A stretch of DNA of 20,193 nt from the UHGV virus genome UHGV-0040698. One strand, given 5' to 3'. The DNA comes from a virus. Below are positions 1,649 through 19,942 of the stretch, piece by piece. Below the pieces are notes generated by a model. The model saw only the letters and a program-made list of their open reading frames with translations, was not told the DNA's origin and did not search any database. The position numbers were made by a program, and so were the translations under genes. Within the stretch, counting starts at the first letter, position 1, and each line of letters begins with the position of its first letter.

Positions 1649-2011
1649 TTAATCCATATCTAAGCTAACATTTAGAATAGCTAGACAACCTTCTATAAAT
1701 CCCTCAGCCATCTGTATCTCAATGCGTATTATTTTCTCATCCTTTTTGCGAGCTTTAGCGAGCTTTCTTTTAGAGATACCGTATAGGTAATGGGCAACAA
1801 GAAGCGAGTGTTCTTCAGGTCTTTTTTGCTTTAGACGAGCAAGACAACCTTCAATAATTAATGCATCACTATCTGAACAAGCCTGACGTGTTTTGCTTGT
1901 ATAGGGAAGAAGCCCTTTAAACCCAGCAGCTATAGGCGAATAGTCTACCCCAGAACTATCACTCGCCGCCCATGCACCCCAACGATCCAGAACCATCTGA
2001 ATATCACGCAT
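1649..2011 (-). CDS. Antitermination protein Q (phage 82 / QuuD-like Q family)
   Basis: Product begins MRDIQMVLDRWGAWAA...IAAGFKGL, the characteristic N-terminus of enterobacterial prophage Q proteins; track start at 2026 adds 5 residues; last gene of the minus-strand operon. Confidence 0.8.
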   Translation of the reverse strand: MRDIQMVLDRWGAWAASDSSGVDYSPIAAGFKGLLPYTSKTRQACSDSDALIIEGCLARLKQKRPEEHSLLVAHYLYGISKRKLAKARKKDEKIIRIEIQMAEGFIEGCLAILNVSLDMD

Positions 2012-2028
2012 CAACTTTCTCCACAAAA

Positions 2029-3024
2029 TCAGGCCAGCACGCCAGTTGCCAGCGCGCGATCGATAAAACGAAATATCAGCTCCAGCTGGGAGCCATACTT
2101 CTCTTCAAATGCCACGGTATCCGCATGCAGCTCGTCGTGATGCTTTCTGCACAAAGGCAACACAAAGAGATCATGCGCTTTTGTACCCATTCCACCCTGA
2201 CCGTGGCCTATCAGGTGGTGGGGATCATCAGCAGGCTTTCCACAACATGCACACGGCTGCGTCTTAACCCAGCGCGTGTACTTTTCATTAACCCAGCGGC
2301 GACGTTTTGGGCGTAACATAAAAGACTCCGGCGACTCTGGATCCACTTTCAGCGCCAGCACCTTTTTCGCTTTATCCTGGATAATGCTGGTGGCAGGAAC
2401 CGAAGGAACAAGGTCACTCTCCCGGGTGACAGACGGCACAACAGGCTTAGGTAATCTCAGTGCCTTACGGGCTGCACTTTCCGGTAAGGCATCAGCCAGG
2501 TCATTACGAACCAGCCACCAGCACAGTTCCGGCATTGTTACAACGTGACTATCATCAAAACCGAGATCACGGCGCACAACAGATAACACCCAGCGGGCAC
2601 AGTTATCCGTTGCCATTGATTCCAGCCGTTCCGTGAACTGATCGCGCAGCTGGTTATCGCAGTGCCAGCACAGACGGATTGCGCCCGGCGCGTGTCGCAT
2701 TGTGGTCATGTTCTCGCTGTGCCAGTCAGAATGGGGCCACTGGCAGCCTTTTTCACGAAGTAACCAGCTTTCAAGACATTCCACTCCACCAGCACGACGG
2801 ATTACTGCCTCATTGCGGAACACGGCCCGAACGGCAGGATCATCCGCCAGCGGTTGTGATGCCGCCGGAACGGCACCACTGGCGAAAGATGAATAACGTT
2901 CCGGCTCAGGCTCCAGCAGGACACGCCCCTGCATAAACAGGGGCATCAGCTCTGAACCTGGTCTGAACAATACGATCCCCATACGCGGGGCAATTTCAGG
3001 GGTCAGTAGTGCTCTCACGGTCAC
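2029..3024 (-). CDS. DUF968-family phage protein (YdfU-like) with Cys/His-rich HNH-like C-terminus
   Basis: C-terminal CACCGKPADDPHHL...CRKHHDELH motif typical of DUF968 prophage proteins; track start is GTG at 3024 and true start is uncertain (next ATG at 2982 lacks SD). Confidence 0.7.
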   Translation of the reverse strand: MTVRALLTPEIAPRMGIVLFRPGSELMPLFMQGRVLLEPEPERYSSFASGAVPAASQPLADDPAVRAVFRNEAVIRRAGGVECLESWLLREKGCQWPHSDWHSENMTTMRHAPGAIRLCWHCDNQLRDQFTERLESMATDNCARWVLSVVRRDLGFDDSHVVTMPELCWWLVRNDLADALPESAARKALRLPKPVVPSVTRESDLVPSVPATSIIQDKAKKVLALKVDPESPESFMLRPKRRRWVNEKYTRWVKTQPCACCGKPADDPHHLIGHGQGGMGTKAHDLFVLPLCRKHHDELHADTVAFEEKYGSQLELIFRFIDRALATGVLA

Positions 3025-3025
3025 C

Positions 3026-3841
3026 TCAATGAACGGTATTGAGCAGCTTTAACAGCTCAGGGAATCGGGATTCGAAGAAGTGCGGCTGCGTCTCGCGCGG
3101 ATTTGCAGGACTGGTGATGTTCTTGCCGAACATGCAGCCTTTCGCTGTCAGCGACCAGAATTTTTTGATGTTGTTAATCGAGGTACGGCTGTATCGTTCG
3201 CGCTGCTCGACGATCCCCAGCTTCACCATCTGGTGATATGCCTGATTAGCCGTAAGGCGGATACCATACTGTTTCAGCAGTGCACTCAGCGACAGCGTAG
3301 GGCGGCTTGAACCATCTGGCGCATCAGCAGGTGCATCAATGGCATAGATCGGCATAAGTTCAGGAAGACCAGCTACCTTTGATAATTTCTGGTATGCACC
3401 AAGTTTCGAGGAGTTTGACAGATTTAGAGTCTTTGCTGCTGATTCAAGCAGAATGACCCCGGATTTAATTTTGTCGGATGTGGTTTCTTCTGGTGATGAA
3501 TTATGAAGCGCATCAAAAGTACGTATCACTTTTAAGCTGAATGCCGGGCTGATCCACATTGCATATGCATAGACCAGCTCTTTACAGACATACGTCCCAC
3601 CATTGCGCCCCTGAATGGTGATGACAGGAATACTACGGGAATCTCCCGTAGTTTCTTCTTCCAATAATTCCACAAGAGCCTTCGTTTCAGGACGACGCAT
3701 AAACTCGTGAACTTCCAGCGAACGGGAGGAGCGATTCTCACCAGCGGCAAGAAGAGCAGCTTTCTGAAGGTCGTTAAGACAGTAGTTAGATTCGAAGTAC
3801 TGGCGCACAGAAACGCCATCAATTACAAGCAACTGATTCAT
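3026..3841 (-). CDS. KilA-N domain protein, antirepressor-like
   Basis: IQGRNGGTYVCKELVYAYAMWISPAFSLKV KilA-N signature; start moved from GTG 3853 to ATG 3841 which has GGAGA 5 nt upstream; LexA box lies in its upstream region. Confidence 0.7.
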   Translation of the reverse strand: MNQLLVIDGVSVRQYFESNYCLNDLQKAALLAAGENRSSRSLEVHEFMRRPETKALVELLEEETTGDSRSIPVITIQGRNGGTYVCKELVYAYAMWISPAFSLKVIRTFDALHNSSPEETTSDKIKSGVILLESAAKTLNLSNSSKLGAYQKLSKVAGLPELMPIYAIDAPADAPDGSSRPTLSLSALLKQYGIRLTANQAYHQMVKLGIVEQRERYSRTSINNIKKFWSLTAKGCMFGKNITSPANPRETQPHFFESRFPELLKLLNTVH

Positions 3842-3938
3842 TGGTTTCTCCACAAATTTTTATCCACGAGCGGGACTGCACTCCCTTTTCGTTGATGCAG
3901 GATGAACTTACTGCGATTTTTAATAGTTATCAAGGATA

Positions 3939-3958
3939 CACTGTTCATAAATACAGTA
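3939..3958. promoter_or_regulatory. LexA (SOS) box upstream of the KilA-N gene
   Basis: caCTGTtcataaatACAGta matches the CTGT-N8-ACAG core of the E. coli LexA box consensus; lies in the 150-bp intergenic gap between rusA and the KilA-N gene. Confidence 0.6.
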
Positions 3959-4003
3959 TCTTTAACGAGGTAATACCCAAATTTAGGGTGTTGCTCAATT
4001 CCG

Positions 4004-4399
4004 TTACCGAGTTGCTAATTTGCAACTCGCTTTTTCGTACTTACTGATAGTGATCTCGACCTTCCCCTCCGGGATAACCGGTCCCCACTCCACCAGCATT
4101 CTTTTCACCTGACTGTCGTCTTCCCACACACCCGCGTGGGTCAGGGCGTCAAACAGCGCCTTGTTATAGTTGTCCAGATCGCGGATCCGGTTATCCGGAG
4201 GAAACAACACGATCTCCACTGAAGCAGGTGCCGACGTTGGTTTTGGCAGACGACGTAACTGCTCAACTATTGCTGCACACGCCGCGCTCTGGAATTTGCG
4301 CCCCGCCGCGCTTATCAGGCTCTTACCTGCAAACGCCCCTTTGTTGGGGTGTCGCCAGTACGTGTTCACGCTGGGCGGGAAAGGCAGGATCAGCTTCAT
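4004..4399 (-). CDS. rusA: Holliday junction resolvase RusA
   Basis: ~130-aa product with conserved RusA-like acidic core (DLDNYNKALFDALT...W.DD.QV); ATG with GAGGGG upstream; ATGA overlap with upstream gene. Confidence 0.8.
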   Translation of the reverse strand: MKLILPFPPSVNTYWRHPNKGAFAGKSLISAAGRKFQSAACAAIVEQLRRLPKPTSAPASVEIVLFPPDNRIRDLDNYNKALFDALTHAGVWEDDSQVKRMLVEWGPVIPEGKVEITISKYEKASCKLATR

Positions 4400-4722
4400 A
4401 CTTTCAGACCCCTCTCATGTAACCAGTGGGCTGCACGCAACCTGGCGTTCTCCTCACCGGCAAGCAGTGCGCGGATGATACCGACCGCTTCGCTGTCGTC
4501 GTCCTTCACTGCGGTATGAAGCGTGATCCCCCGGGCCACGCCACGCTTTATCGTGATGACGCCTTTTTTCTCCAGTGCGCGAAGATGCTCCACCGCTGCA
4601 TTCACCGAACGGTATCCCAGCATGGTTGCCACCTCCTGATTGGTTGGCGGAAAGCCACGTTCTTTCTGGTAAGAAATCAGCATATCCAGCACCTGCTGCT
4701 GGCATTGAGTTAACGTCGTCAT
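4396..4722 (-). CDS. LexA N-terminal DNA-binding-domain protein without peptidase domain
   Basis: LTQCQQQVLDMLISYQKERGFPPTNQEVATMLGYRSVNAAVEHLRALEKKGVITIKRGVARGI parallels the LexA winged-helix N-domain (LT.RQ.EV...I......G.PPT..EIA..LG.RSPNAAEEHLKAL.RKGVIEI..G.SRGI); 108 aa, no S24 Ser/Lys domain; GGAGA SD. Confidence 0.7.
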   Translation of the reverse strand: MTTLTQCQQQVLDMLISYQKERGFPPTNQEVATMLGYRSVNAAVEHLRALEKKGVITIKRGVARGITLHTAVKDDDSEAVGIIRALLAGEENARLRAAHWLHERGLKV

Positions 4723-5372
4723 GCCGCCATCTCCCTGACCAGTTTTTCTGCCTGCTGGCGAACCTGCGCCAGAAACGCCTCACCACATGCCTCAAGTTCA
4801 TCGCGCCCGATGTAGCTGATTGCCGGTCCCTTCCAGGTCTTGTCGAAAACAGCAATAGCACCAGCGAAGAAAGCGCCTGTCGGCACCTGCTTCTCATCCT
4901 TCGGGATAAACCAGGCAGGCAGTTCAAAACCAATACGCCCGCGAATAAAAGCAATATGATCTGCATCTTCCGGCCACCACACTTCGCTGGTGGCAGCTTT
5001 GATCAGGAAAACATAGCGCCCGCCTTTATCACGCATGGCACTGGCATGCTTCATGATGTAACGCATGCCGGTGATGTATTGCCCCTCATGCTGACTGGCG
5101 CGGCTGTATGGGGGATTACCAAAGGCAGCACCTTTAAGCTCCGCAAGACGTTCTGACCAGTCATGCGCCAGCGCGTTGTCTTCCGCCGTGTAATACGCGG
5201 CACATTTGGCGTTATCACCGTCAGTGAACAGATCCAGAACAAACGGGCCAAACAGGGTGTTAATTCCCCAGAAAATGTTGTCCGGCGTGCGCCACTGATC
5301 GCCCACTTCCTTCAGTTCATGGGCTGGTTTGTTCCGCAGTTCCACCAGCGCCTGGCAATATTTATTACTCAT
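4719..5372 (-). CDS. Phage N6-adenine DNA methyltransferase (Dam-like)
   Basis: FGNPPYS catalytic motif IV of N6-adenine MTases; start set at ATG 5372 (TAATG overlap with upstream stop, GGGGG SD) rather than the GTG at 5405. Confidence 0.75.
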   Translation of the reverse strand: MSNKYCQALVELRNKPAHELKEVGDQWRTPDNIFWGINTLFGPFVLDLFTDGDNAKCAAYYTAEDNALAHDWSERLAELKGAAFGNPPYSRASQHEGQYITGMRYIMKHASAMRDKGGRYVFLIKAATSEVWWPEDADHIAFIRGRIGFELPAWFIPKDEKQVPTGAFFAGAIAVFDKTWKGPAISYIGRDELEACGEAFLAQVRQQAEKLVREMAA

Positions 5373-5860
5373 TAAGCCCCCACGTAATTCCCTGACAGAT
5401 ACCACTCTTCACCCGATGCAGCGCGCTTGCTGCTTTTCCGTAAGCACCGCTCACGACGCGCCAGAAAATTGTTTCGTTCTGGCTGGGAGTGGCTTTCACG
5501 GAATGCCGCCATCCACACGGTTGCAGCACGACGGTATAAGCCCCTGGACTCCAGTTCTTCCGCCTGGCGGGTCAGGCACAAAATCACACGGGGATCGTTA
5601 GTGCCGACATAGAAATTGCGCACAGGTCTGGTTTCACGAACTGGTTGTGGTTCCGGTTCCTGCGCTCTCTCAGTCAGGCGCGGGAAATGTCTGCGTGTAT
5701 CTCCTTCACAACGGTGAGCCACACGCCCACTCTGACGTAACTTGCTTGCTGACTGCAGAACGCGCTGCCGTGAGTAACCGGCAAAAGCATCCGCAATATC
5801 TCCGGAAGTACAGCCCGGATGGGCTTCAATGAATTTCTGAACGTCATTCAAAAGACTCAT
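5372..5860 (-). CDS. Hypothetical regulator with PerC-like C-terminal region
   Basis: C-terminal AEELESRGLYRRAATVW resembles PerC-family activators; ATG at 5860 two nt after the upstream stop with GGGGG SD (track start 5866 is GTG). Confidence 0.5.
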   Translation of the reverse strand: MSLLNDVQKFIEAHPGCTSGDIADAFAGYSRQRVLQSASKLRQSGRVAHRCEGDTRRHFPRLTERAQEPEPQPVRETRPVRNFYVGTNDPRVILCLTRQAEELESRGLYRRAATVWMAAFRESHSQPERNNFLARRERCLRKSSKRAASGEEWYLSGNYVGA

Positions 5861-5862
5861 GC

Positions 5863-6804
5863 TCACCCCCTGAATCCTGCCGGGATTTGGCTGTAGTCCA
5901 CGTTGTCGTAACTGGCTTTGAAGTACGGGTCTTCGCGTTTTTCGGTGTACGTGCTGACGGACGGCGATAAGCGCAGGGAAAGCTCATCCCATTTTTCCCG
6001 CAGCTTCGACGGGCTGAGCACGTTACGGCACCAGAACGGATCGCGACTGACGCGGCTGTACATCTCGCAGATTTGTTTATGAGTACGACCATCCTGCACA
6101 CACATCAGGCGAATTTCGTTTGCCCAGGCTGTCCAGTTCGGTTCTTTGGGACGAACCACCTCGCCGTCACATTCGGCGGCCTGCTCGTACAGGGCGATGA
6201 TTTTTTTCCAGAGCCACTGTGCGCAGGTCAAATCATCCTGCGTTCCCCACTGGCGCTTTTTAGGGCTGAATACAACCGCATCAGGATGGCGAGTTAAAAA
6301 CTCCTGTTCAGCCGTCTGCGTGTCCGGTTGCGAAGCGTCCGGACGAGAAGTTTTTTTATCTGACGGATCATGTTTTGATTTTACTGACGGATCCCCGCCA
6401 GATTCTGACGGGTGAAAACCCGCTTTTTTGCCAGATTTCGACGCATCAAATTTTGACGGGTCAGATTTTGATGCGTCAGATTTTGACGGGTCAGAATCTG
6501 ACAGTTGAGAAAATGCCGCTGCCTGAAGCTTCGCAACGTTAAGCTGATAAACATTCGACGCATTGCGGTTACCCTGGCGACGCGCCTTACGCGTTAACCA
6601 GCCTTCTGCTTCCAGCCGTGCGATAGCCGTTCTGACGGTACTCATTCCCGCGCCAATCTGGCGGGCAATGGTTTCAATTGATGGCCAGCACACACCTTCG
6701 TCATTACTGAAATCAGCCAGGCGGGCCATAATTGCCACGCTGGATAATTTCATGCCTGATGCAGCGCAACCATCCCATACATAGCCGGTTAATTTAGTGC
6801 TCAT
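5863..6804 (-). CDS. Phage replication initiation protein (N-terminal winged-HTH, repeat-containing linker)
   Basis: N-terminus CWPSIETIARQIGAGMSTVRTAIARLEAEGWL is an HTH of replication-initiator type; the gene contains DNA iterons that encode the SDPSKSDASKSDPSKFDASKS repeat; GAGG SD. Confidence 0.7.
   Translation of the reverse strand: MSTKLTGYVWDGCAASGMKLSSVAIMARLADFSNDEGVCWPSIETIARQIGAGMSTVRTAIARLEAEGWLTRKARRQGNRNASNVYQLNVAKLQAAAFSQLSDSDPSKSDASKSDPSKFDASKSGKKAGFHPSESGGDPSVKSKHDPSDKKTSRPDASQPDTQTAEQEFLTRHPDAVVFSPKKRQWGTQDDLTCAQWLWKKIIALYEQAAECDGEVVRPKEPNWTAWANEIRLMCVQDGRTHKQICEMYSRVSRDPFWCRNVLSPSKLREKWDELSLRLSPSVSTYTEKREDPYFKASYDNVDYSQIPAGFRG
6355..6506. repeat. Iteron array inside the replication gene (candidate origin of replication)
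   Basis: About eight imperfect direct copies of a ~14-15 bp unit (ATTTTGACGGGTCAG, ATTTTGATGCGTCAG, GATTCTGACGGGTG ...) with TGACnnGTCA cores, analogous to ori-lambda inside gene O. Confidence 0.6.
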
Positions 6805-6813
6805 GACCGACCT

Positions 6814-7152
6814 CTATTTCCCTGAATTTACGACGAAACTGTTCGAGCGGGCTGAAGCACTCATGCTCATAGCCTTCGCGGAGGTAGATAACACGTTGTG
6901 TTTCCGGCTCCCAACGAATGACTCTGACGGGCACTCCGTAGTGATCTTTGAACCAGCGGTTAACTTGTCGCAAAGGACTGTCTCCTTCTGCCGGTTGAAA
7001 TCACCCACAGCCCACTCTGCAAAGCTGTGGGTTACAATTTCCCTGTCACCTGGTACATTTACTGCATAGCAATACTCCACCTTCGCTTTTCCACCCGGTA
7101 CAGGAAGCGCAATCAGTTGCGAGCGACGGTAGTGTGTTGTTAAACTGTTCAT
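6814..7152 (-). CDS. Hypothetical protein (112 aa)
   Basis: ATG at 7152 overlaps the upstream stop (ATGA) and has GGAGA upstream; stop 7 nt before the replication gene start; no recognisable motif. Confidence 0.4.
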
Positions 7153-7712
7153 GCGTTAGTTTCTCCACAGTCACGACACGCCACGGCGCCCGGAGCTGCA
7201 CACTCGCGGGCGTCACTACTTTCTGAAACGCAAAAGATTTTGTAGACCAGTGCTGCATGCTCCTGCAGCTTCGAAATTGAGAGGTACAGCTCATCGTTAA
7301 TTGCTGTCTTCTCATGCGGTTCCACTACACCGTCTTCAATTGCTGAACGAATCTGTTTTGAATAACTGCCGATCTGTTCAATGACTTCCAGCAGGCGTTG
7401 GTTGATATCGGCGTTGTCCACATCCTCGACGTCAGGAAGAGACACAAAGACGCCATTTGCAGACTGCGCCACAGCATCAGCAATGAAGTGAGTGCCACCA
7501 GCACGCTGTAAAACCATTGCCCATCCCAGCGGGAAAATCTGATCGCCATCTGCACGAAGGCGGTTGAATAAAGCGTTTTCTGTTACATCGAGCCAGTCAG
7601 CCGCTTCAGCGTAACCACCCGGCAACGCCGCGATAGTTTTTCTGACAGCTTTCACGTACCACTCAGGCTGTTTTTCTATTTTCCAGTGATGCTTACCCAC
7701 GGTTAGCCTCAT
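7149..7712 (-). CDS. CII-like / YdaT-like phage regulatory protein
   Basis: Position directly downstream of the Cro-like gene as in Rac ydaS-ydaT; 187-aa product; weak SD; family assignment by context and size only. Confidence 0.45.
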
Positions 7713-8034: not shown

Positions 8035-8709
8035 ATGAAAACAATCCATGACATCCGGCGGTCTAACGCCAGAAAACTGAGAGATGGTGTTGGCGGGAAT
8101 TCTTCCTTTGCCACTATGATTGATCGCGAGCCAACCCAGACCAGCAGGTTTATGGGAGATGGTGCTACTAAAAATATCGGTGACAGCATGGCACGACACA
8201 TCGAAAAATGTTTCGACCTGCCTGTCGGATGGCTCGATCAAGAACACCAGACAACGAACATCACAAAAAAACCTGATGTTTCAATCACTAATAAACAAAT
8301 CACATTAGTCCCTGTCATATCATGGGTACAGGCCGGAGCATGGAAAGAAGTTGGATATTCTGAGGTTGATTTGAGCACAGCAGAAACGTATCCCTGCCCT
8401 GTACCCTGTGGGGAAATGACTTATATCTTGCGGGTGATAGGTGATTCAATGATTGATGAGTACCGCCCGGGAGACATGATTTTTGTCGATCCTGAAGTAC
8501 CTGCCTGCCACGGTGACGACGTTATTGCATTGATGCACGATACAGGCGAAACCACCTTCAAAAGGTTGATAGAAGATGGGACACAGCGTTATCTCAAAGC
8601 GTTAAACCCAAACTGGCCTGAGCCTTACATTAAGATCAACGGTAATTGCTCTATAATTGGTACAGTGATTTTCTCAGGAAAACCAAGAAGATACAAAATC
8701 AAAGCCTAA
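8035..8709 (+). CDS. cI-like prophage repressor with S24 (LexA-type) autopeptidase domain
   Basis: C-terminal GDSM...FKRL Ser/Lys dyad spacing typical of S24 peptidases; N-terminal CI-type DNA-binding region; divergent from the cro-like gene. Confidence 0.85.
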   Translation: MKTIHDIRRSNARKLRDGVGGNSSFATMIDREPTQTSRFMGDGATKNIGDSMARHIEKCFDLPVGWLDQEHQTTNITKKPDVSITNKQITLVPVISWVQAGAWKEVGYSEVDLSTAETYPCPVPCGEMTYILRVIGDSMIDEYRPGDMIFVDPEVPACHGDDVIALMHDTGETTFKRLIEDGTQRYLKALNPNWPEPYIKINGNCSIIGTVIFSGKPRRYKIKA

Positions 8710-13894: not shown

Positions 13895-14968
13895 ATGGCG
13901 ACTATACGCAAACGTGGTAACTACCAATGGGAAGCTCAAATCCGTAAACGAGGTTTTCCCTCTCAAACCAAAACCTTTAACACCAAAGTAGAAGCAGAAG
14001 CTTGGGCCAAAATGATCGAGTCAGAAATGGCGAGAGGAGTTTGGCTTAGCCGCAGCGAAGCGGAATCTACGACATTGTATGAAGCCCTAACGCGATATGA
14101 AAAAGAGATTGTTCCCGACAAAAAAGGGGCAGTGCAAGACCAATCATTGGTGCGGATACTAAAAGGCACTCAGCTGGCGAAAAACTATATGGCCAGCATC
14201 AGGAGTGCCGATGTCGCCAAGCTGAGAGATGAATGGTTGAAAATCTATGCCCCTGCAACCGTTTTAAGGCGTTTGGCCTTACTTTCTCATGTATTCAACG
14301 TTTCGCGGAAAGAATGGGGCATGGAGAGCCTGCTGAACCCCGTAGAGGCCATTCGCAAACCTCAACCCAAGAACTCCAGGACCAGACGCCTGGAAGCGCT
14401 GCCTGTAGTTTCTGAGAAAACCGGTGTTACGTCAGGAAAGGAAATAGCCAACGAGATCGAACATATCATCGCCGCAACACATTCATTAGTATTGCCAGCA
14501 ATCATTCTTCTGGCGTTAGAGACAGCCATGCGCCGTAGCGAAATCGCAGATCTTCGATGGCGCTTTATCGATCTTGATCGGCGAGTTGCACATCTGCCGG
14601 ATACTAAGAATGGTAATGCCCGCGATGTCCCTTTATCAACGAAAGCCATCACGATACTGTCCAGTCTCAAGGAACATTCTAAGCCAGCTGCTGATAAGGT
14701 TTTTGATATGCGTGCAGACGCGATTACCCGAGCTTTTGACCGAGCTGTAAAACGAGCCAGAGAACGATACGAGAAAACAAACTCATTATGTGATGAATCA
14801 TTCCTTAAAGATTTAAGATTTCATGACCTTCGACATGAAGCAACTTCTCGACTTGCTGAAATTTTCCCTATGCATGAACTGACCAAAATTACAGGACATA
14901 AAGATCCAAGAATGCTAATGCGGTATTATCATCCAAAAGCTGAAGATTTGGCGTTAAAGTTGAAATAA
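13895..14968 (+). CDS. Tyrosine recombinase / integrase of the second island
   Basis: Catalytic R (ETAMRRSE), HxxR (FHDLRHEATS) and Y (LMRYYH); ATG at 13895 (the track start 13865 is a TTG). Confidence 0.85.
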   Translation: MATIRKRGNYQWEAQIRKRGFPSQTKTFNTKVEAEAWAKMIESEMARGVWLSRSEAESTTLYEALTRYEKEIVPDKKGAVQDQSLVRILKGTQLAKNYMASIRSADVAKLRDEWLKIYAPATVLRRLALLSHVFNVSRKEWGMESLLNPVEAIRKPQPKNSRTRRLEALPVVSEKTGVTSGKEIANEIEHIIAATHSLVLPAIILLALETAMRRSEIADLRWRFIDLDRRVAHLPDTKNGNARDVPLSTKAITILSSLKEHSKPAADKVFDMRADAITRAFDRAVKRARERYEKTNSLCDESFLKDLRFHDLRHEATSRLAEIFPMHELTKITGHKDPRMLMRYYHPKAEDLALKLK

Positions 14969-14977
14969 GGACGTTAT

Positions 14978-15868
14978 ATGGAATATAAAAATAATTTGGT
15001 TGACGCATCATCCAAATTAAACAACCCTCAACTATTGGCTATAATATACTTAATACCTTTTGGATACTTGATTGTAGAAAACCCATTATGGCTAGAAAAT
15101 ATATACATTGCCGCTCCAATTTTTCTATCATCTATAGCTTTATTAACCAGTGTATACATAGGATATCGTGATTTATTAAATAAAGTATTTAATAATACAG
15201 TGGTTAAGTGGGGCGTAACTGGCTTTACATATTCAGTATGCTTATGGATCGCAAAGTTTAAGCTTGACATAGCTTATGGTATAGCCCCAGAAAATCTTAA
15301 TTACTCAACATTAGCTTATGCTTTCATGCTCTCATTTCCAATAGGAGCAATGATTTGTGCAACTACAGTCTATATATACATATTTTTGCGAGATGTATCC
15401 CCAGCAAAAATAGTAATATCCTCTATGATTTCAGTATATATTGGAAACTTGGCTCAACATCATATACAAGTGAACAATCTTCCTGAAAAAATAATATTAA
15501 TAGGACTCATAATTATGGTCCCCTATAACATGGTCAATCTAGCCAGTTCATTAGTTATTAAAAGGAAATTTAATTTTAATCGTTTAGTATCAGGCTTATC
15601 CCTTTTTGCTGTGTCAGTTGCTCTTTTTATTATTAGCATGACAGCAATGAAATATATTGAAAGATTTCAAGAAAAGTTTATTTTTCTTGATGCAAGAACA
15701 TCTACGACATGTGGTAGCGCAGAAAGCAAATCTCTTTATATTGAAAAAAATGAAAATCAGTGTTATAAAATATCAGGAAATAAATTCTCGGAGTTAAGAC
15801 TAACTCTTGTAGATAAAAACATCCCGAATATAAATAATAAGGGCACTTCAACTTATGAACAAAAATAA
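14978..15868 (+). CDS. Polytopic membrane protein of unknown function (296 aa)
   Basis: AGGA SD 8 nt before ATG, 9 nt after the integrase stop; multiple hydrophobic segments; strongly AT-rich. Confidence 0.65.
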   Translation: MEYKNNLVDASSKLNNPQLLAIIYLIPFGYLIVENPLWLENIYIAAPIFLSSIALLTSVYIGYRDLLNKVFNNTVVKWGVTGFTYSVCLWIAKFKLDIAYGIAPENLNYSTLAYAFMLSFPIGAMICATTVYIYIFLRDVSPAKIVISSMISVYIGNLAQHHIQVNNLPEKIILIGLIIMVPYNMVNLASSLVIKRKFNFNRLVSGLSLFAVSVALFIISMTAMKYIERFQEKFIFLDARTSTTCGSAESKSLYIEKNENQCYKISGNKFSELRLTLVDKNIPNINNKGTSTYEQK

Positions 15869-16342: not shown

Positions 16343-17296
16343 TTATTTAGGGCGGGCTGATGTTAATGTCGCTAGCAAGGTTGGCATGAACCATTCTCTA
16401 ACAAGCTCCTCATACATATTTGAAAGATTTGTTAACTTATGCCAAACCACTTCGGAACAGTAACTCAAAAAATGTTCATAATGTTCAGGTTTTACCTCTT
16501 TATCAATATCTATTTGAAGTTGGATCAACTCCTTTTGGCTCGATACCATCGGCTTCCAAAATTCATGACCAGACCATATATCTTGTCTAAGAGCAATTAC
16601 AATAAAGTTATTTACCATCTCTATAGCTTCATCGAAAGAGACAGGAAATTGTACGGCCGCTTTACCTTGTAATCGGTTTATTTCTTTTAATTGATAGTTA
16701 AAAAGTGAGAATGCGCCATACATTTTTGATCTTTTACCATATGCACGTAATGGAACAAGCGCATCTTCATCATCCAGAATTTCATTTTCAAGAGGTATAT
16801 ATATAGTCTTTGAGTCTTTTTTAGAATAATTCGGGTCTTCTGGTATGAGAACTTTATCTATGTAATCATTAAGGCAAATAAAAAATGCCTTTTCTGTATT
16901 AGTGTCAACTAGTATCAATAATACTGGAATTGCAATACCTATAGACTGAACAGTCAAAATGTCTGATATATCTAACTTGAATTTTGCGACAGGGATTTCG
17001 ACAAAATCGCTTTTATCTTCTGTTAACTTTCCTTTGGTTACATTTCCACGAGCATAGGCTTTACGTGTACAATATTCAATACAATCTGAAGATTTTAGTT
17101 GTACAAAGAAGTTTTCACCAAGGGTTTCTGCAATACTTTCACTGTCATCAATAAAATCAAATAATTCAACAACGCAATCAATACCATAGTCAGCGCCATA
17201 GCTATGTACGACCCATTCGCGAGGTAGTTTTTCCCGCAGAACCCTGATTGAAATGTCTTCTTTTACCTGGCTAATAGACCGTCTTTTCTTTGGCAT
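16343..17296 (-). CDS. DUF4365-like (PD-(D/E)xK nuclease-like N-terminus) protein, 317 aa
   Basis: Strong GGAGG SD; N-terminal HSYGADYGIDCVVELFD...FFVQLKSS pattern resembling DUF4365; AT-rich. Confidence 0.65.
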   Translation of the reverse strand: MPKKRRSISQVKEDISIRVLREKLPREWVVHSYGADYGIDCVVELFDFIDDSESIAETLGENFFVQLKSSDCIEYCTRKAYARGNVTKGKLTEDKSDFVEIPVAKFKLDISDILTVQSIGIAIPVLLILVDTNTEKAFFICLNDYIDKVLIPEDPNYSKKDSKTIYIPLENEILDDEDALVPLRAYGKRSKMYGAFSLFNYQLKEINRLQGKAAVQFPVSFDEAIEMVNNFIVIALRQDIWSGHEFWKPMVSSQKELIQLQIDIDKEVKPEHYEHFLSYCSEVVWHKLTNLSNMYEELVREWFMPTLLATLTSARPK

Positions 17297-17472
17297 GTTA
17301 CCTCCTAAAATTACAAATTAAAAAACAGATCTTACACTCGAATGCTTAAAATGTCCGCTTCTGACACAGGGCTGCTGTTGCAGCCCTGACAACCTCGTAA
17401 CATTCCCCCCTTCATTATTAGTTTTAAATCTTGTCAATTTTCTTCTTTCAAGAATATGCTTGCATCAAGCAA

Positions 17473-18867
17473 TCACGGCTTTTCCTTGGCTTTGAGTTTA
17501 TCGGCGACATCTGGAACAATACTAAACTCGGTTACTGATGCAAGTACCTGGTTTTTCCATTGGGTCTCACAGATGATCTCTCCATTGTGTTCAAACCAAT
17601 GTGTTGCCCCCGGCAGGAAATCATGGGACATTGGATAAGCAGCATTAGGGTTATGAAATACTTCAAGTTCAAAACACCAAAATTCTTTGCCATCGCAAAG
17701 ATTAATATATTCAGGCGATTGAATATCTAGATCGAAGTCAATTGGTTCCAAGGCCCCTTCAGTCCTATCAAATAAAATCCCAACCCTGCGGGCTTTCACA
17801 ATAGGTGAGGAAAATTCAGCTTGGATTGCCATTCGCTGGAATTTTGGCAATGTTCCAGCATTACTAAACAAGATAGCAGATAAATTTTCAATCTCTGGGT
17901 GGTTAAATAGTCCTGCCGGAATATTTACATGGCCTAAAAGCTTTTCAATTGATAATGCAGCAGCCTTCATACCTTTGGATGTTTTGACTGTATGTGCGGT
18001 TTGCCCATACAAATAGGTTGGAAGTGACTCGCGAGACCAGACCATAGTGCCCCCACCGCTAAAATCCGCTATAGCGATTGCAAATGGAAATCCTTTAACA
18101 TGCGGTAGTTCTTCATACTTTCTCTGGAGTTTAGATCTGATGGTCTTAGCGAACCGTGCTGCCATATCACCTGCTGTGCGAGCTAATCGATCTCCGGGGG
18201 GGAATTGTGTTTGAGGCAACTTTAGGCTGCCCGGACCAGTTGGATTCGCGGTGACCGCCTCAACATATGCTTTGTTATTACCGTTCATGAGCATAAAATC
18301 CGGAGATGGATAATCTTGAAAAACTTTAATTCCCTGCTCTTTAAAACATGCGAAAAGGTATAGCTCCCAGATTCTAGAGTTGAATCCTTGGGTCTGGAGA
18401 TCGGTTCTGAAGTTATCATCAGGTTTTGGTAATGCCAGATAGAGCTCGACAATTAAATGAAATGCTCCTCGGTACTTTATCGTGGACGATAATTGTATAA
18501 ATGCCTGACAAACATTCCGCTCACCAACATGATCCAGTCGGGCTCTACGTGATTGCCCAGATGGAATCGGTAATAAATCTCCTCCGGCTGAAAGGTGCTT
18601 ATCAAGATGCACCAATGCCTCCTGCTCGGTAAAACACATCTCATGCTCGAGAGGTACCAGCACATAATCTTCCCGTCGCCTGAGCACAACAAGGCCATAT
18701 GAATTTTTGCTGTATTGAAGGACTGCACCATATCCAAGCCCTTTTTCATTTGACCAAGCGGAAAGTAATTCCGCATTACCATAATTAGGCCCATGTGGCA
18801 ATGACATTGCAAATATCTTAAATGCTTCAGTAGGCATTCTTTGTAGGCTATAGATCTTATTAGACAT
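17473..18867 (-). CDS. Hypothetical protein (464 aa), second gene of a two-gene operon
   Basis: GGAGAG SD 8 nt before ATG 18867 (the track's ATG 18873 is only 2 nt from the SD); 22 nt after the upstream gene; no named motif. Confidence 0.65.
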   Translation of the reverse strand: MSNKIYSLQRMPTEAFKIFAMSLPHGPNYGNAELLSAWSNEKGLGYGAVLQYSKNSYGLVVLRRREDYVLVPLEHEMCFTEQEALVHLDKHLSAGGDLLPIPSGQSRRARLDHVGERNVCQAFIQLSSTIKYRGAFHLIVELYLALPKPDDNFRTDLQTQGFNSRIWELYLFACFKEQGIKVFQDYPSPDFMLMNGNNKAYVEAVTANPTGPGSLKLPQTQFPPGDRLARTAGDMAARFAKTIRSKLQRKYEELPHVKGFPFAIAIADFSGGGTMVWSRESLPTYLYGQTAHTVKTSKGMKAAALSIEKLLGHVNIPAGLFNHPEIENLSAILFSNAGTLPKFQRMAIQAEFSSPIVKARRVGILFDRTEGALEPIDFDLDIQSPEYINLCDGKEFWCFELEVFHNPNAAYPMSHDFLPGATHWFEHNGEIICETQWKNQVLASVTEFSIVPDVADKLKAKEKP

Positions 18868-18889
18868 TTTCATCTCTCCATAGATAATC

Positions 18890-19942
18890 CTAAAATTCAG
18901 TTAAATTGAAGCTTCCTTGATTTAGATGACATATTTCTGGGACGACCGATTCTGATATACCTTCACTTTCATGAATCCCTAGTGTTACTACTGTACTAAG
19001 CTCAGGAAACAATCTTCTCTTTGTTTTTGGTTTAATTTTTATATGTGAGATCATCTCCAAAAATCTGGAGGTTGTATAAATTGTGTCATAATGAGCAGAT
19101 CCTTCGCCATCGTCATACCATGAGCCTGTATCCACTACTACAGTGTTAAGTAATGGTGCTATTAAATTGAAATTATCAGTGCGAATAGAGACTGCAAACT
19201 TGAAGGGATAAGAATCTTGCTGTGCAAAGTAATCCTCACCACGCCCGTATTGCCTAGTAATTTCAACTATTCCGCGCACCAAAAGATAAATATAATTTTC
19301 GTCAAGGTTCAGCAACTCAATGGATTCAACATTGCACCAATCAACAGTTGTTTGTGAAGATAATATATCCAGTTCGTCAGGGATATTATTCATTGTGATG
19401 TCAGTAACTTCATTCTGTACTTCCTCGATTATTGATTCGGTAATAACACGCTCAAGTTCATCGAAGGTATCGAATATTATGTTACACAGTTCTATTATTA
19501 GTTTAGCACTCTCAAAAAACTGTTTGGGGTTACTATCAAATGAATGTTCGCTAATATGGGTGTAATCGTTTAAAGAAGAATAGTTTTTATTGAACCATGC
19601 TATACCATCATCTAGTCTTTCGATAGCTACATCATCAAGAAGTTGATCGGGTATATGCTTCTGGGCGATGTATTTTGCTTGCTGTTTACGGGTAACAGTG
19701 GCGTTATTTTTGTTTTTAGTGAACCATGGAGACGCCATAACTCTGTCATTTGGTGCCAGTCGTTTCAGCACATGATTTATTAGCTCACGTATTGCAAATG
19801 CAAAGTTGTTGAAGCGCAGAGGATTACCATGAGAACAATAGTTGCGAAGACTGGCATGTAAGAGTTCATGCTCAAAGTCAGTTTCTAGGTGCTCTTGAAA
19901 CTCCTTGATGAAATCCATTTCAAGCATTTTTTTTAGTTTCAT
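18890..19942 (-). CDS. Hypothetical protein with HEPN-like R-x4-H motif (350 aa)
   Basis: ATG at 19942; N-terminal FAFAIRELINHVL contains R-x4-H; AT-rich; first gene of the operon. Confidence 0.6.
   Translation of the reverse strand: MKLKKMLEMDFIKEFQEHLETDFEHELLHASLRNYCSHGNPLRFNNFAFAIRELINHVLKRLAPNDRVMASPWFTKNKNNATVTRKQQAKYIAQKHIPDQLLDDVAIERLDDGIAWFNKNYSSLNDYTHISEHSFDSNPKQFFESAKLIIELCNIIFDTFDELERVITESIIEEVQNEVTDITMNNIPDELDILSSQTTVDWCNVESIELLNLDENYIYLLVRGIVEITRQYGRGEDYFAQQDSYPFKFAVSIRTDNFNLIAPLLNTVVVDTGSWYDDGEGSAHYDTIYTTSRFLEMISHIKIKPKTKRRLFPELSTVVTLGIHESEGISESVVPEICHLNQGSFNLTEF

Follow-up and report, generated by a model that had tools for sequence, protein, structure and literature searches.

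A palindrome of the LexA-box type precedes a KilA-N gene in a lambdoid prophage. Does this gene answer to DNA damage through the LexA protein of the host, and what kind of protein would such a response produce? The prophage is part of the virus genome UHGV-0040698, of which one strand of 20,193 nucleotides (here called the window) was analyzed. Because a near-perfect LexA site adjoins a conserved internal promoter, the KilA-N gene is probably switched on directly by DNA damage, as judged from sequence comparison. In our literature search, no publication described a LexA box at a KilA-N gene, and no binding or expression data for this locus emerged. Neither this KilA-N family, as it occurs in SfIV, SfII, and the Stx phages, nor the truncated LexA homologue encoded nearby, which lambdoid phages share, was the subject of any paper found.

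The Prophage and Its Minus-Strand Operon

The window contains a lambdoid, SfIV-like prophage that is 98.8% identical over the region to Shigella phage SfIV and Escherichia phage PhiR49_1. According to Pfam, its pR operon on the minus strand starts with a cro-like gene and a gene of the cII/CP76 family (7149-7712). The genes that follow are listed in Table 1. The Dam methylase gene is followed by a LexA-like gene, RusA, the gap that holds the box, KilA-N, DUF968/HNH, and Q, and the order methylase, LexA-like, RusA, KilA-N, DUF968, and Q is widely kept among related loci. The box therefore sits in the nin region, 2.2 kb upstream of Q. From 3841 down to 1649 terminator-like matches are weak, and a strong hairpin follows Q at 1634-1609. 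Since the stretch from KilA-N to Q has no convincing terminator, a transcript from the promoter proposed below (P_kilA) could reach DUF968 and Q, and these two genes may be co-transcribed from it. Unrestrained expression of Q would be harmful, which argues for a P_kilA that is weak or attenuated.

The preliminary description of this DNA had placed a CTGT-N8-ACAG sequence upstream of the KilA-N gene, within the only sizeable gap of the operon, and had seen a cI-like repressor with an S24 domain of its own. All of this was confirmed. The gap (3842-4003) is 162 nt long and all other junctions of the operon overlap or measure at most 31 nt, the palindrome occurs once in the window and belongs to a 20-mer that scores 20.4 bits, and the divergent repressor gene has a clear Peptidase_S24 match (Table 1).

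Two other gene groups lie at the margins of the window. Downstream of Q and convergent with it, 206-1605 on the plus strand encodes a DUF6731 protein (310 aa) and a hydrophobic-looking protein of 150 aa. These look like moron or defence cargo, in the position that stx takes in Stx phages. A defence-type cluster on the minus strand (16343-19942) lies past the integrase end of the prophage and comprises a DUF4365 protein (16343-17296), a 466-aa protein matching PADLOC PD-T7-1 (17473-18873), and an Argonaute/pPIWI-associated nuclease (18890-19942; pP_pnuc_1, pP_pnuc_2, Aga_Nuclease).

Table 1. Features of the KilA-N locus and the genes around it (coordinates of the window).
Feature	Position	Strand	Basis or remark
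Q antiterminator gene	1649-2026	-	Pfam; behind DUF968/HNH
DUF968/HNH gene	2029-3024	-	Pfam; packed directly behind KilA-N
KilA-N protein, 271 aa	3026-3841	-	PF04383, E 1.3e-15; ATG at 3841
Shine-Dalgarno GGAG of KilA-N gene	3849-3852	-	Sequence; GTGGAGA kept in relatives
Leader hairpin	3866-3892	-	RNA fold; loop GUGCAG, inner stem GGGA/UCCC, outer stem CGA/UCG
-10 TAAGTT of proposed P_kilA	3905-3910	-	17-nt spacer; T1, A2, and T6 invariant
-35 TTGATA of proposed P_kilA	3928-3933	-	Top sigma-70 match in gap; starts 5 nt past box
SOS (LexA) box, predicted	3939-3958		Matrix score and uniqueness; core CTGT-N8-ACAG at 3941-3956
Alternative promoter P2	3953-3980	-	TTGGGT (3980-3975), 16-nt spacer, TACTGT (3958-3953); 5.5 bits
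RusA resolvase gene	4004-4399	-	Pfam PF05866; alignment with SfII-type phages
LexA homologue, truncated, 108 aa	4396-4722	-	PF01726, E 2.9e-19
Dam methylase	4719-5405	-	Pfam
PerC	5372-5866	-	Pfam
O-like replication gene	5863-6804	-	Pfam
cI-type repressor, 224 aa, divergent	8035-8709	+	Peptidase_S24 PF00717, E 1.5e-26

A Predicted LexA Box

The core of the box is the 16-mer CTGTTCATAAATACAG at 3941-3956. The bare CTGT-N8-ACAG pattern is weak evidence, because 0.29 matches are expected per window and at least one is present in 26 of 100 shuffled windows. The complete 20-mer, which reads CACTGTTCATAAATACAGTA on the plus strand (3939-3958) and TACTGTATTTATGAACAGTG on the sense strand, was scored with a matrix of 31 E. 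coli boxes, which yields approximate scores. The sense-strand sequence reached 20.4 bits with the base composition of the window and 21.6 bits with a uniform background. This exceeds the median of the training boxes (19.7 bits; minimum 11.7). None of 300 first-order Markov shuffles attained 20.4 bits, the best of them scoring 19.3, and the box is the sole site above 10 bits in the 20 kb. It has the marks of an E. coli-type SOS box: a palindrome with an AT-rich spacer, flanks of the TA type, and a score within the range of proven boxes. Its heterology index is 5.6 on our matrix, and PSOSP reports a low-index peak of binders near 7.3 and a peak of non-binders near 22 on its own matrix (PMC12527982), two scales that are not directly comparable. 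Judged from the quality of the match, host LexA very likely binds 3939-3958 in vitro.

The runner-up in the window, AACTGACCAAAATTACAGGA at 14877-14896, scores 9.8 bits, which is under the weakest training box. It lies outside the prophage, about 80 nt upstream of an open reading frame starting at 14978, and is probably a chance match.

A Conserved Candidate Promoter Beside the Box

A consensus promoter scan of 3700-4150 at a threshold of 9 of 12 positions found no promoter. P_kilA was therefore identified by a simple hexamer model of our own and by comparison with relatives. TTGATA-17-TAAGTT scores 10.2 bits, the best of the gap on either strand and within the top 5% of random 162-nt windows, and the transcription start is predicted near 3898. 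Orthologous loci were drawn from IMG/VR, from one genome per species, and from contigs encoding intermediate homologues. Eight relatives from Kluyvera, Leclercia, Kosakonia, Phytobacter, Raoultella, and uncultured phages, whose KilA-N proteins are about 64-79% identical to that of the window, were aligned. In all eight, the TG of the -35 element, positions T1, A2, and T6 of the -10 element, and a spacer of exactly 17 nt are invariant, while the spacer sequence is unrelated and the -10 hexamers read TAATGT, TAATCT, TAGTGT, or TAAGGT. A hairpin with a (G/T)TGCAG loop and the ribosome-binding site GTGGAGA are invariant too. The distance from the end of the 20-mer to the -35 element is exactly 5 nt in the window and relatives alike. 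The alignment shows the box as one element of a larger conserved unit that is made up of the putative promoter, the hairpin, and the KilA-N gene.

The position of the box is the main weakness of a LexA model. Chromosomal SOS boxes of E. coli usually overlap the -35 element, the -10 element, or the start site of transcription. Here the box lies 5 nt upstream of the -35 element of P_kilA, off the core promoter, which is atypical for LexA repression. The one candidate that overlaps the box is P2, a match at chance level. Its 5.5 bits are no better than a random window gives, and the segment that contains it is exclusive to this lineage. Its -10 element would be the left half-site of the box, and classical occlusion of P2 by LexA is a speculative reading of this arrangement.

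A Model for Damage-Dependent Expression

The site and the promoter together incline us, by a small measure, to the view that the LexA operator at 3939-3958 puts P_kilA under SOS control and regulates KilA-N in vivo. In a lysogen, pR would be kept off by cI. A LexA dimer on the box would cover approximately -41 to -60 of P_kilA and abut the -35 element, where it would occupy the AT-rich zone used for docking of the RNA polymerase alpha subunit and hold P_kilA low. DNA damage would activate RecA, LexA would cleave itself, and P_kilA would fire independently of cI. The transcript would begin just upstream of the (G/U)UGCAG hairpin and encode KilA-N, and it may run into DUF968 and Q. The outcome would be a second damage input for the prophage that bypasses the self-cleavage of cI. 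We infer four parts of this model: the occupancy of the site by LexA in vivo, the start site, repression from a position upstream of the -35 element, and the extent of the transcript.

Distribution and Evolution of the Box

Five phage records contain the exact gap, as do 186 of the 5,426 complete E. coli genomes, with the O104:H4 strain HUSEC2011 among them, and 42 IMG/VR loci have an identical box. Where the box has its outer G, SfIV and strain AZ187 carry the consensus A. Within the lineage (48 loci, seven variants), 12 of 155 nt are variable, and the one variable site in the box is its outermost base, which has changed towards the consensus. Such divergence is too small to show constraint on the box. 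The SfII, SfV, Stx2a, and Stx2c phages have a RusA-KilA junction of 19 nt, with neither box nor promoter. Mosaic junctions were placed at two points: the final RusA codons with the stop, which form the upstream border of the box-bearing segment, and the neighbourhood of codon 80 of KilA-N.

Relatives with the same promoter have the right half-site alone (...ATGAACAGTG), their left half being C-terminal coding sequence of RusA, and they score 7-15 bits; some relatives (L170/L049) are without any box. The full palindrome is thus a feature of the SfIV/PhiR49_1 lineage. Of 41 non-redundant upstream regions of orthologues, not all of them independent of one another, eight have a LexA-like site scoring 13 bits or more, where 0.26 would be expected (binomial P 2e-10). 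This is an enrichment of about 30-fold, and it involves several independently built promoters. The Erwinia orthologue has a 15.9-bit box that holds the -10 element of TTGCCA-17-TATATT, and the boxes of the Edwardsiella and Serratia orthologues score 19.2 and 14.5 bits. Since boxes are found at differently built promoters and are absent elsewhere, SOS control of the KilA-N gene seems to have been gained repeatedly. It also seems to be dispensable for the gene, because half-site, boxless, and gapless relatives exist.

These patterns bear on the possibility that the palindrome is a neutral by-product of the mosaic junction at the 3' end of RusA, which may bind LexA in vitro and have no regulatory effect. 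Such an origin fits a full box that occurs in one barely diverged lineage with no excess of constraint, that lies outside the core promoter, and that relatives manage without. A match of 20 bits is not expected by chance in 20 kb, however, and still less so in a gap of 162 nt. The fixed distance of 5 nt to a conserved -35 element and the enrichment of LexA-like boxes upstream of orthologues also speak against neutrality, and we consider it unlikely.

Two further LexA-type sequences were met in related or unrelated DNA. The exact 18-mer ACTGTATTTATGAACAGT of the box recurs in an unrelated 80-kb contig (L241, IMGVR_UViG_2609460236_000001) at about 100-135, where a tandem SOS box of the colicin type (CACTGGTTATATTTACAGTACTGTATTTATGAACAGTG) lies directly ahead of an ATG and has this 18-mer as its second half. 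A second strong LexA-type box, TACTGTAAAAATAAACAGTG, scores 22.6 bits and recurs downstream of Q in relatives (L170, 9947-9966; L178/L179, 8986-9005; L090, L097, L066, L070, L073, and others), and the window has no copy of it. It falls within codons 3-9 (NTVKINSV) of an N6_N4 DNA methyltransferase, and it could be an SOS operator or simply conserved coding sequence.

A Truncated LexA Homologue Encoded Nearby

Two genes upstream of the box lies a gene that the preliminary description did not mention. Its 108-aa product matches PF01726 over residues 1-65 and aligns to residues 2-86 of LexA. Against TIGR00498 it scores 70.5 bits, below the cut-off of 110.95, and covers model positions 1-91 of 203. 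It has the domain content of a truncated LexA homologue, with the catalytic and dimerisation domain missing. Five residues of LexA are listed as contacting DNA (PMC3091678), and the 108-aa protein keeps four of these (Ser39, Asn41, Ala42, and Glu45) and has Val in place of Glu44. A stretch reading LLAGE aligns with the Ala84-Gly85 cleavage region of LexA, although the catalytic domain is absent. Thousands of sequences from E. coli prophages belong to this family, whose members differ at positions 44 and 45 of the recognition helix.

Could this phage protein, made from pR after derepression, be the ligand of the box and activate or re-repress P_kilA? It consists of the DNA-binding domain of LexA, keeps four of the five contacts, and is encoded close by. 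The box abuts the -35 element of a promoter with a weak -10 element, a placement that is compatible with an activator, and GIL01 gp6, a truncated LexA homologue and the only analogue that has been characterised, activates from a site overlapping the -35 element (PMC6182141). On the other hand, SfII lacks both box and gap and yet encodes a 99%-identical protein, and KilA-N is preceded by LexA-like boxes in L096, L097, and L111, where such a gene is missing within 4 kb. Positions 44 and 45 vary in the family, and the dimerisation domain of LexA is missing. Taken together, the SfII protein without a box, the boxes without a gene, and the variable helix do not support a role of the 108-aa protein that is dedicated to this box. 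Among related loci, box quality did not correlate with the presence of the phage LexA-like gene. We think it rather improbable that the 108-aa protein is the biologically relevant ligand of the box, an idea that would allow host LexA to bind the same site as well.

A more elaborate reading, which seems to us more doubtful still, joins the box, the 108-aa homologue, and the leader hairpin in a previously undescribed device for timing and competition. Host LexA would hold P_kilA off, and after damage the uncleavable 108-aa protein made from pR would re-occupy SOS boxes. KilA-N expression would then be a pulse, and the SOS regulon of the host and the LexA-controlled antirepressors of rival prophages would be shut down. 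The components of such a device are common in E. coli prophages.

The KilA-N Product and the Linked Repressors

The KilA-N protein is a member of its family by a Pfam match above the gathering score and by an APSES-like fold. [quoted passage not shown] In a search for antirepressor domains, Pfam found KilA-N alone and NCBIfam found nothing. The protein shows no homology to the DinI/Tum-like, Gifsy small antirepressor, ANT, Bro-N, or P22 Ant families.

Near-identical KilA-N alleles with the same box adjoin three repressors: one YmfK-like (224 aa), one of the XRE-S24 type (230 aa), and one of the LexA family (217 aa). Two linked repressors, annotated as XRE family and LexA family, are known from RefSeq only. 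The XRE-S24 and YmfK-like repressors align over just 39 residues, with 38% identity. Near-identical alleles are also linked to different types of Q. A Peptidase_S24 domain was found by Pfam in the linked repressors of the window, L005, and L006, and by precomputed Pfam hits in those of seven more loci. In the translation of the window repressor, a cleavage-site-like VQAG, a GDSM serine, and an FKRL lysine can be read. The linked repressors that were tested are not of the kind that escapes RecA-dependent cleavage, and the KilA-N gene is not tied to one particular repressor. Different repressors beside the same gene, all of those tested with an S24 domain, make a repressor-specific antirepressor unlikely and unnecessary.

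The preliminary description had suggested that the KilA-N product may be an antirepressor made in the SOS response, which would bind and inactivate cI of the prophage; induction would then be doubly wired, through this protein and through the self-cleavage of cI. The SOS-box half of this proposal is supported by a score of 20.4 bits and by the conserved promoter that adjoins the box. The antirepressor half is not, as no such domain was found in the protein and its gene is linked to different repressors. In its favor are the LexA-controlled precedents Tum of coliphage 186, AntC of N15, and GfoA/GftA of the Gifsy phages (PMC3121763), the presence of both a box and an S24 repressor in the window, and some database records in which KilA-N proteins are named 'ant' or 'anti-repressor' by annotation alone. 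Its fold, by contrast, is that of an APSES/KilA-N DNA-binding protein. Alleles with the same box sit beside three different repressors, and every linked repressor seen is of the S24 type or the LexA family (in part by Pfam, in part by annotation), whereas repressors of the Gifsy type need an antirepressor. The orthologues of SfII and the Stx2 phages, moreover, are plain genes of the pR operon without a promoter or box of their own. An antirepressor function thus appears quite unlikely to us, and what is known of its domains agrees better with a DNA-binding regulator or with a 'kil' function directed at the host.

The Leader Hairpin

In the window, the leader hairpin lies about 15 nt upstream of the ribosome-binding site of KilA-N, and in nearly all Escherichia-like relatives a hairpin with a (G/T)TGCAG loop is found 15-45 nt upstream of that site. 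All 39 viral relatives have it, and so do most of the full-length homologues in genomes, whereas its background frequency is 0.02 per 130 nt. The element is confined to the 250 nt upstream of the KilA-N gene. Loci that carry it upstream of the KilA-N start beyond the window are L003, L048-L086, L087-L119, and L170-L180. The gapless SfII-type phages keep it as GGCGG-GTGCAG-CCGCC, which overlaps the stop codon of RusA. Stems of 25 different sequences close the same loop. Each of their four inner positions is filled by three to six types of base pair, and two pairs show compensatory changes among close relatives. Judged on the window alone, the hairpin is not unusual.

Rfam, searched with the window or the gap, gave no family at gathering scores or at E values up to 10. 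A covariance model built from close relatives recovered just those and L178, and because of this limited recall a loop-anchored search and a table of stems were used instead. As an intrinsic terminator the hairpin was ruled out, since no U-tract follows it. A sizeable minority of E. coli prophages has an 11-bp deletion (CTCGTGGATAA, 3861-3871) that removes the 3' side of the outer stem. Its carriers are L005, L006, L289, and 15 IMG/VR loci, and their inner stem, loop, and LexA box are intact. The yeast APSES factors Sok2 and Phd1, which have the KilA-N fold, are listed with motifs of the TGCAG type. KilA-N might bind its own leader hairpin, possibly as an autoregulatory site.

Roadblock and Antisense Readings of the Box

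LexA on the box might serve as a roadblock to transcription from pR when an undamaged cell has just been infected. Transcripts from pR would then be late to enter KilA-N, DUF968, and Q, which would bias the decision between lysis and lysogeny. The box does lie within the pR unit, 2.2 kb upstream of Q and with no strong terminator between. The adjacent conserved promoter is a simpler target for it, and phage antitermination usually overrides roadblocks, which counts against this idea as well; we hold it to be highly improbable.

A palindrome in the last codons of RusA (GCGAGTTGCAAATTAGCAACTCG, 4008-4029) is specific to the lineage and resembles a terminator on the plus strand only, where it is followed by a T-run (4030-4037). 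As a sense-strand terminator, the hairpin at 4030-4008 was rejected because the T-run is on the plus strand only. The idea that the box controls a plus-strand antisense RNA, which would end at this hairpin 50 nt beyond the box and target the 3' end of RusA in the manner of lambda oop, was dismissed as scarcely credible, since even the best promoter candidates on the plus strand are weak and do not exceed 6.6 bits, AZ187 has lost one pair of the stem, and the hairpin lies in lineage-specific coding sequence.

Implications and Comparison With Known Systems

If LexA controls P_kilA, prophages of the SfIV type have a damage-sensing input that bypasses cI. About 3% of complete E. coli genomes carry such a prophage, those of the O104:H4 outbreak lineage among them, and serotype-converting Shigella phages also belong to this type. 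LexA is cleaved at lower levels of damage than cI-type repressors, as is established for lambda. KilA-N, and possibly Q, could therefore be expressed in lysogens under stress that is too mild for induction. If so, this would affect host physiology, spontaneous induction, or the leakage of late genes. The locus also makes gain and loss of SOS control visible, since the unit of promoter, hairpin, and KilA-N has a full, half, or no LexA box depending on the lineage. In addition, the comparison brings out two very common elements, namely the leader hairpin with its (G/U)UGCAG loop and the truncated homologue of LexA that is encoded in lambdoid nin regions.

Several LexA-controlled prophage loci resemble the one described here in part. 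Tum of coliphage 186 and AntC of N15 share with it an SOS box that gates a single prophage gene outside the immunity region. Ant of SPC32H, a LexA-controlled antirepressor, belongs to the same gating class. KilA-N has no similarity in sequence or fold to Tum, AntC, or Ant. Chromosomal E. coli boxes such as those of recA, sulA, and umuDC have the same consensus and score range; at the prophage locus, however, the -35 element is abutted from upstream. The KilA protein of P1 has a homologous N-terminal domain (36.8% identity over about 106 aa), and the C-terminal parts are unrelated. Its gene, in the kilA-repL operon, is under the C1 repressor at P53 and is not known to be under LexA.

The Bacillus tectivirus GIL01 has no cI, and its lysogeny repressor is LexA together with gp7, with gp6 as a proven activator (Fornelos et al., 2018; PMC6182141). 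Both gp6 and the 108-aa protein comprise the winged-helix domain of LexA only and are encoded near LexA-box promoters, which in the prophage are predicted. Unlike gp6, the 108-aa homologue is encoded in the nin region of a lambdoid phage, and phages that lack the box have it as well as phages that carry one.

[quoted passage not shown] There, as here, a LexA box with its own promoter lies in a lambdoid nin region downstream of the replication genes, a palindrome precedes the box, and the damage input bypasses the immunity region (PMC3121763). The palindrome at 4008-4029 recalls those ahead of the Gifsy LexA boxes. The effectors differ, being a DinI homologue and a small antirepressor in Gifsy and a 271-aa KilA-N DNA-binding protein in the window. 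The Gifsy repressors need an antirepressor, whereas the repressor of the window is of the self-cleaving S24 type and its box lies upstream of the -35 element. Most likely, this locus joins the known LexA-controlled loci of prophages, with Gifsy as the closest of them, and combines such a box with a different effector and a self-cleaving repressor.
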